DNA of 64,000 nucleotides from sequence record PQ571307; one strand, 5' to 3'. The notes beneath the pieces were generated by a model. It saw nothing but the letters and a program-made list of their open reading frames with translations, did no database searches and was not told the origin of the DNA. Shown here piece by piece: positions 26,775-27,019 of this stretch. Position 1 is the stretch's first letter. Each line of letters starts with the position of its first letter. Source of the stretch: Shigella phage SF1-1. The position numbers were made by a program, and so were the translations under genes.

Positions 26775-27019
26775 TCGACGAGCTTGCCTCTCAAGTCATA
26801 GAAAATTATTGGCGCGAGAGAGAAGCTTTCATTATGCGCAGTCTCAAAGAGTATTTCATTGGGACTGTGCGAATGGAAGATATTGTAAGTAGAGTAGAGA
26901 TTCATGTATGGCCCGATTATGAAGAATGGGTTGACAAAGAAAATGAAAATGCTATAATTCTTCGTATATACAAACCGGAGATAACATTAGGAGGAAGAAG
27001 TGTTAAACTTCGAAATTGA
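26771..27019 (+). CDS. hypothetical protein (82 aa)
   Basis: ATGA overlap; contains an embedded consensus promoter. Confidence 0.45.
   Translation: MIDELASQVIENYWREREAFIMRSLKEYFIGTVRMEDIVSRVEIHVWPDYEEWVDKENENAIILRIYKPEITLGGRSVKLRN
26931..26958 (+). promoter_or_regulatory. near-consensus sigma70 promoter (TTGACA-16-TGcTATAAT) embedded in coding sequence
   Basis: TTGACA 26931-26936 and TATAAT 26953-26958 with TGn extended -10, upstream of the paralog-B/TerD cassette. Confidence 0.45.

Follow-up and report, generated by a model that had tools for sequence, protein, structure and literature searches.

Promoters of the extended -10 class, such as galP1 and lambda pRE, carry a TG at -15/-14 that is contacted by sigma region 3.0, and their -35 hexamer is usually poor or absent. 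The early promoters of T5, T7 (A1-A3), T4 and lambda (PL/PR) have been mapped experimentally, possess near-consensus hexamers, are served by the unmodified host holoenzyme and act when infection begins; in compact phage genomes, many such promoters are found inside an upstream gene or at its end. Among the large myoviruses of E. coli, the promoters of the rV5-like phages (virulent, ~140 kb) take the form TTGACA-N15-20-TATAAT and have been read as a sign that the host RNA polymerase is used; 33 sigma70-consensus promoters were predicted in the rV5 genome, 11 of them with an extended -10, in a search restricted to the 100 nt upstream of genes and made without a comparative test (Kropinski et al., 2013; PMC3606486).

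The site described here lies at positions 26931-26958 of a 64-kb stretch of phage DNA (the window). It shares with the rV5-like large E. coli myoviruses a host-type consensus sequence for which use by the host polymerase is proposed, but it differs from the rV5 predictions in being a 12/12 match with a TGn, in lying inside a coding sequence, and in belonging to another subfamily, the Stephanstirmvirinae. Like galP1 and lambda pRE, it has a TG one base before a TATAAT-like hexamer; unlike classical extended -10 promoters, it also has a perfect consensus -35 hexamer, at a spacing of 16 nt. Its near-consensus sequence and its co-orientation with early genes recall the early promoters of the T phages and lambda, although the present site is a predicted one, and to our knowledge none of the early promoters of T5, T7, T4 or lambda is a perfect 12/12 match with a TGn. 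The site would be an early promoter that lies unannotated within a phage coding sequence, an arrangement of a well-known kind that is unusual here in the 12/12 match with TGn and in its clear dual coding. No promoter annotation at 26931-26958 was present in the deposited records inspected, phAPEC8 and ESCO13 among them.

Between positions 25000 and 29000 the window shares 98.6-99.3% identity with about 60 complete phAPEC8-like E. coli myovirus genomes, and it is Phapecoctavirus DNA (phAPEC8-like E. coli myovirus, subfamily Stephanstirmvirinae, about 150 kb). As far as ~5.9 kb its genes are encoded on the minus strand; a plus-strand block follows (5.9 to 41.5 kb), after which the minus strand is the coding strand for the remainder of the window. 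The last of these blocks (41510-64000) consists of large genes and is called structural here, a name of our own. No tRNA genes were found anywhere in the 64 kb. Within the plus-strand block, three genes whose products carry Ter domains according to Pfam, namely TelA (PF05816), vWA-TerF-like (PF10138) and TerD (PF02342), are encoded together, a combination that marks the Ter stress-response gene set (Table 1). Four small ORFs, the 187-aa gene included, separate the TelA-like gene from paralog A. Paralogs A and B are 33% identical, with A standing directly 5′ of the vWA-TerF-like gene and B directly 5′ of TerD; Justusliebigvirus has paralog A and lacks paralog B. ORF82, a CDS in the phAPEC8 and ESCO13 annotations, overlaps the stop codon of the vWA gene (ATGA) at one end and the first 20 nt of paralog B at the other. 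Judged from its pattern of conservation, ORF82 is a coding sequence: it shares 58% amino acid identity with its counterpart in phiWec179, its indels are in-frame only, and identity at the first, second and third codon positions is 0.65, 0.79 and 0.60.

Table 1. Features of the window between the TelA-like gene and the endolysin gene, in order of position.
Feature	Position	Strand	Remarks
TelA-like gene, PF05816	23466..24578	+	Pfam
187-aa gene	25144..25707	+	
Promoter-like site TTGACA-17-CATAAT	25535..25563	+	inside 187-aa gene; upstream of paralog A and vWA gene
Paralog A, phrog_11278	25700..25978	+	GTG start after AGGAGG
vWA-TerF-like gene, PF10138	25980..26774	+	Pfam
ORF82, 82 aa, phrog_22387, function unknown	26771..27019	+	contains promoter site
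-35 hexamer TTGACA	26931..26936	+	6/6 consensus; over ORF82 codons V54-D55-K56
16-nt spacer AAGAAAATGAAAATGC	26937..26952	+	extended -10 TG at 26950-26951
-10 hexamer TATAAT	26953..26958	+	6/6 consensus; over ORF82 codons A61-I62-I63
Predicted transcription start, G26964, T26965 or A26966	26964..26966	+	inferred; 6-8 nt after -10
Shine-Dalgarno AGGAGG for paralog B	26989..26994	+	5 nt before GTG; RBS annotation in ESCO13
Paralog B, 89 aa, phrog_11278, function unknown	27000..27269	+	GTG start
TerD-domain gene, 200 aa	27285..27887	+	Pfam PF02342, E=3e-28
GC-rich hairpin GAGGGGGAGAAATCCCCCTC	27906..27925	+	dG -16.9 kcal/mol, z -3.8
Next promoter-like site TTGCAA-17-TGTTATACT ((TGT)TATACT), extended -10	27926..27954	+	intergenic; conserved in phiWec179, L008
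Endolysin gene	27987..28508	+	

The site reads TTGACA-AAGAAAATGAAAATGC-TATAAT, with a TG one base before the hexamer so that the extended -10 is TGnTATAAT, which bears out the TTGACA-16-TGnTATAAT reported for 26931-26958 in a preliminary description of this DNA. The same description had named it the best promoter match in the window, and indeed the 64 kb contain no other exact TTGACA-N15-19-TATAAT on either strand; the site is the top match of an automated promoter scan (12/12 plus the TG), and also the top match of a PWM scan, in which a matrix built on approximate textbook frequencies gave it 15.8 bits vs 14.8 for the runner-up. Its placement in the 3′ part of an ORF at 26771..27019 is equally correct, with the promoter lying in frame over codons 54-63 of the 82-aa ORF (GTT GAC AAA GAA AAT GAA AAT GCT ATA ATT, or VDKENENAII). 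The site had further been placed about 45 nt before paralog B; the upstream position stands, and the distance is corrected to 41 nt between the end of the -10 hexamer and the paralog B start codon (GTG, 27000), with 326 nt to the ATG of TerD (27285). The optimal sigma70 spacer is 17 nt and that of the site is 16 nt. Strong transcription, which the preliminary description also proposed, is a claim tempered by this spacing and by the limited promoter escape that a full consensus can entail. At the level of sequence, then, the locus has the features of a sigma70 extended -10 promoter: both hexamers, a TG at -15/-14, a spacer within 17 ± 1 nt, a co-oriented downstream gene at a distance that accommodates a leader, a Shine-Dalgarno sequence and a start codon, and a motif that is conserved in relatives.

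A match of this kind could also arise by chance, if the A+T-rich coding stretch V-D-K-E-N-E-N-A-I-I happened to spell the consensus and no transcription started there. The genome has a G+C content of only 39%, lenient sigma70-like matches are common in it (61 found vs 45 expected in 16 kb), and first-order Markov simulations of the 35.6-kb block around the site, in which both strands were counted, reached its score or a higher one in 2% of cases. Chance is nevertheless quite unlikely, because of the conservation of the site and the statistics of the population to which it belongs.

The first part of this evidence comes from within ORF82. A sister clade consisting of phiWec179, phiWec186, phiWec188, phiWec190, the ‘Pseudomonas’ phage PsgM04F and the IMG/VR contig L008 also carries ORF82, at 65-68% DNA identity and 58% protein identity to the window. 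In the four members of that clade whose site was read (phiWec179, phiWec188, PsgM04F and L008), the sequence is (A/G)TTGACA-AAGCAAA(T/C)AAAGCTGT-TATAAT, so that 14/14 specified bases and the 16-nt spacing are identical between the clades and 5/14 free spacer bases differ; the -10 TATAAT is invariant in all ORF82-carrying relatives. The local peptide changes from VDKENENAII in the window to (I/V)DKANKAVIM in the sister clade, with residue differences V/I, E/A, E/K, N/A, A/V and I/M. The underlying codon changes GTT to ATT, AAT GCT to GCT GTT, and ATT to ATG alter amino acids and leave the promoter bases intact, and the spacer TG is kept in the phiWec clade by way of different codons. The retention of all 14 bases and their spacing at 68% DNA identity, despite these residue changes, argues against a chance match. 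The motif bases fall on five first, four second and five third codon positions, and the naive chance of keeping 14/14 is 0.65^5 x 0.79^4 x 0.60^5, or about 0.003, in what is a single deep comparison between the two clades that carry ORF82.

The choice of codons points the same way. Five synonymous third positions are needed by the motif, and all are retained in both Phapecoctavirus clades; given the peptide and the codon usage of the phage, the joint probability of the five synonymous choices is 0.004 per clade. Two of the codons used at the site, GAC (21% of Asp) and ATA (17.5% of Ile), are minority codons, and the recurrence of minority codons in both clades is a further argument against chance. 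The preliminary description had held that the promoter constrains the codons of the overlapping gene, and this agrees with the five third positions kept and with the replacements V to I, N-A to A-V and I to M, all of which spare the motif. Among 64 near-identical genomes compared over 26916-26975, 52 are identical and 12 have one mismatch; the four of these 12 that were sampled have changes at 26926, 26969, 26971 and 26952 and none at a specified base, the last being a C to T change in phage AV125 at the free n of TGn, and the variation of about 1% within this main clade is too low to serve as a test of selection by itself. Because an IMG/VR scan yielded no more divergent homologs of ORF82 and a search of 5.8 billion proteins returned near-identical proteins only, ORF82 appears to be confined to Phapecoctavirus.

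The second part of the evidence concerns position. A sequence of the form TTGAC(A/T)-16-TAnAAT occurs just 5′ of the TerD unit in every Stephanstirmvirinae lineage examined, with a constant 16-nt spacer across all seven related lineages. Justusliebigvirus (phi92, alia), Klebsiella phage phi1_175008, Citrobacter phage Tr1 and the IMG/VR contig L009 have neither ORF82 nor paralog B; between their vWA gene and their TerD ortholog (81-86% identical) lie 70-110 nt of non-coding DNA. The intergenic site in these lineages is TTGACT-16-TAAAAT or TTGACT-16-TAGAAT, and its -10 lies 37-41 nt from the start codon in alia, phi92 and Tr1, and about 60-66 nt from it in two Klebsiella-type sequences, which have a leader hairpin in between. 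Because the lineages without ORF82 carry the site intergenically, a sigma70-type promoter immediately 5′ of the TerD unit is, as far as sequence comparison can tell, a feature of the whole subfamily. The Phapecoctavirus version differs in lying inside ORF82 and before paralog B, and it is nearer to consensus than the versions of the ORF82-less lineages. The intergenic equivalents in five such lineages also speak against a chance match within the window.

TerD itself was matched in 137 records, with orthologs in phi92, the Klebsiella phage, Tr1 and the phiWec phages that share 81-91% identity with it, and the variable part of the unit is confined to ORF82 and paralog B. The suggestion that the TerD cassette can be transcribed independently fits this comparative picture, in which each lineage has an upstream site and a GC hairpin follows TerD. 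The leader hairpin of the Klebsiella-type relatives is GC-rich, GGGGAGAGATGGTTCTCCCC or GGGGGAAGAGCGGTTCTTCCCC, and lies between the promoter and the Shine-Dalgarno sequence of TerD (L007 2455-2520; L009 1925-2000); the E. coli phage lineages have no such hairpin.

The third part of the evidence is the population of similar sites. The plus-strand block (5900-41510) contains 19 sense sites scoring at least 12 bits, vs 2.4 ± 1.6 expected from Markov simulation, and a single antisense site vs 1.9 expected. Thirteen of the 19 sense sites end no more than 120 nt upstream of a start codon, as do 20% of random positions (P = 6e-6). Eleven are embedded in genes, and the other eight lie at least partly outside the plus-strand gene calls, which are crude longest-ORF calls that leave 6% of the block uncalled, the site at 28652, for example, being counted as outside and yet lying within a CDS of ESCO13. 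That strong sites are biased 19:1 toward the sense strand and cluster before start codons is not what a chance match would lead one to expect. The structural minus-strand block shows no enrichment, with two sense and four antisense sites.

The 19:1 sense bias and the 8-fold excess of sites in the plus-strand block, both absent from the minus-strand block, suggest that the two blocks use different classes of promoter. The pattern is the one expected if the host sigma70 holoenzyme transcribes the early/middle block from many promoters, and an early or middle timing is proposed for the site because sigma70-like sites are enriched solely in the plus-strand block.

Several other members of this population deserve mention in their own right. 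The site TTGACA-17-TATACT (34453; 14.8 bits) is in intergenic DNA, with the ATG (34515) of an ORF of ~143 aa (region 34453-34946) 33 nt downstream; this ORF was missed by the longest-ORF gene call when spurious minus-strand ORFs were taken instead. A sense site of the same score, TTGACA-17-TATAGT (31426-31454; 14.8 bits), is found 16 nt inside the 5′ end of the gene at 31410..32354 and 900 nt from the following start codon. Closer to the present locus, TTGACA-17-CAAACT (26694-26722) is located within the 3′ end of the vWA coding sequence, 49 nt upstream of where ORF82 starts; its TTGACA is kept in the phiWec-like contig L008 and is absent (CTGTCTGAC) from L009, which has no ORF82.

Ultimately, the host sigma70 RNA polymerase most probably uses the site at 26931-26958 as a promoter, one that belongs to the early/middle block and combines an extended -10 with a full -35 hexamer. 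The motif and its rarity, conservation and position are directly observed, as is the surrounding population of similar sites; from them we infer polymerase binding, start site, timing, strength and transcript end. A literature search for experimental 5′ ends, reporter assays or in vitro transcription in phAPEC8-, phi92- or rV5-like phages gave in-silico promoter counts only.

In the proposed mechanism, the E. coli RNA polymerase holoenzyme would bind with sigma region 4 on TTGACA, region 3.0 on TGn, and region 2 on TATAAT. Sigma70 transcription starts 6-8 nt after the -10 hexamer, and initiation here would fall at about 26964-26966. The predicted transcript of about 960 nt would have a leader of roughly 35 nt carrying AGGAGG, and the Shine-Dalgarno sequence and GTG of paralog B are situated 30-41 nt 3′ of the -10 hexamer. 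It would encode paralog B (GTG at 27000) and TerD (ATG at 27285, after GAGGAG). Messages that read through from upstream promoters (25535, possibly 26694) would probably cover paralog B and TerD as well. Since genes are packed here with overlapping stop and start codons, the promoter must sit inside the 3′ third of ORF82, where it would fix five synonymous positions and limit the amino acid replacements that are tolerated.

At its other end the transcript may stop at, or be protected by, the hairpin at 27906-27925, which is likely to be the 3′ end or a stabilizer of the TerD unit. Hairpins of differing sequence occur at the same place 3′ of TerD in phi92, the Klebsiella phage, Tr1, L009 and the phiWec phages. 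The hairpin of the window is followed by UUGCAAU, a weak U-tract, and a terminator scan did not call it; read-through past it is likely for these two reasons. The next promoter-like site (27926-27954) precedes the endolysin gene (27987) and marks the end of the TerD unit. Its -35 (TTGCAA) directly adjoins the post-TerD hairpin, a layout also seen in phiWec179 and L008.

It is very unlikely that the polymerase binds the site mainly for another purpose, whether as a sigma70-dependent pause or roadblock, as a polymerase sink, or as the target of a phage regulator. A full-consensus promoter binds the holoenzyme very tightly and can escape slowly, which would suit such a role for a full consensus with TGn; polymerases starting at the promoter-like sites upstream (25535 and 26694) would pass over it; and a 10-nt imperfect inverted repeat (26918-27 / 26957-66) flanks it. 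However, the geometry of leader, Shine-Dalgarno sequence and start codon is that of an ordinary mRNA start, as in the intergenic TerD promoters of the relatives, and a search of 25000-28200 for Rfam RNA elements gave none at E ≤ 1. The inverted repeat was considered as a possible operator and rejected: it is not conserved in the phiWec clade, where its right arm is missing, and it is treated as chance. The least probable reading, that constraint on the ORF82 protein (the W-V/I-D-K ... I-I/M block) conserves these bases and the promoter likeness is a by-product, can draw on the conserved protein blocks YEEW-DK and, later, KPEIT between the clades and on the 9/14 motif bases at first or second codon positions, but it is contradicted by five invariant third-position bases where gene-wide third-position identity is 0.60, by residue differences at four motif-bearing codons (V/I in the -35; N/A and A/V where the TG and the opening T of the -10 fall; I/M over the final two bases of the -10) with the DNA motif intact, and by the same motif and spacing in non-coding DNA before TerD in other genera.

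The functional promoter favored here has a sister case at 25535-25563, an embedded site that is conserved in phiWec188, alia and phi92 and is separated from paralog A by 137 nt. In phiWec179 (L003 1466-1560), the 187-aa gene has shrunk to a remnant of ~25 codons that keeps just the promoter segment, and this remnant carries TTGACA-17-GATAAT at a distance of 31 nt from paralog A. Because the remnant retains the promoter segment alone, the comparison shows, at the level of sequence, that selection keeps the embedded promoter although the gene around it is dispensable. The possibility that a promoter was copied along with the duplication that gave paralogs A and B was considered and rejected, the local alignment of the two promoter regions scoring 19 vs 17.9 ± 2.7 for shuffles, which is not significant. 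BLASTP gave no match between ORF82 and the 187-aa protein.

A more speculative proposal, which we regard as doubtful, is that the promoter predates the 3′ coding sequence of ORF82 and that embedded promoters act as stable anchors for the gain and loss of small accessory genes. The parsimony of gene distribution suggests that the promoter is the older element, and its role as an anchor draws both on this order of events and on phiWec179, where the 187-aa gene was lost save for its promoter segment. The ancestral state would be an intergenic TTGACn-16-TAnAAT before TerD, kept in Justusliebigvirus, the Klebsiella phages and Tr1. In the ancestor of Phapecoctavirus, paralog B would have been set behind the promoter, and ORF82 would have come to span promoter, leader and Shine-Dalgarno sequence, so that its last ~29 codons would overlie an older regulatory region.

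With a predicted promoter of its own and a GC hairpin bracketing paralog B and TerD, and with ORF82 and paralog B varying among genera, the unit resembles a ‘moron’. Unlike a moron, it contains a TerD gene that is conserved throughout the subfamily, and it belongs to a virulent phage; given the weak U-tract of the hairpin, its autonomy at the 3′ end would be in doubt. The label was rejected, TerD being conserved across the subfamily and not sporadic.

If confirmed, the promoter would define a probably early transcription unit for TerD and its small partner, which would be useful for asking what the TelA, vWA-TerF-like and TerD proteins do during infection. It would also provide a compact natural full-consensus promoter and a clean case of a DNA signal and a protein sharing the same bases. 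The understanding of phage transcription is left unchanged, host-polymerase promoters inside upstream genes being expected in tightly packed virulent genomes.

Two minor observations concern the deposited records. Near-identical genomes have been deposited as phages of Campylobacter, Acinetobacter, Klebsiella and Pseudomonas, host labels that look doubtful at 99% identity to E. coli phages. Furthermore, GenBank MN850565 (phage ukendt) is linearized at the start of the -10 hexamer (~26953), which is probably an arbitrary assembly breakpoint.
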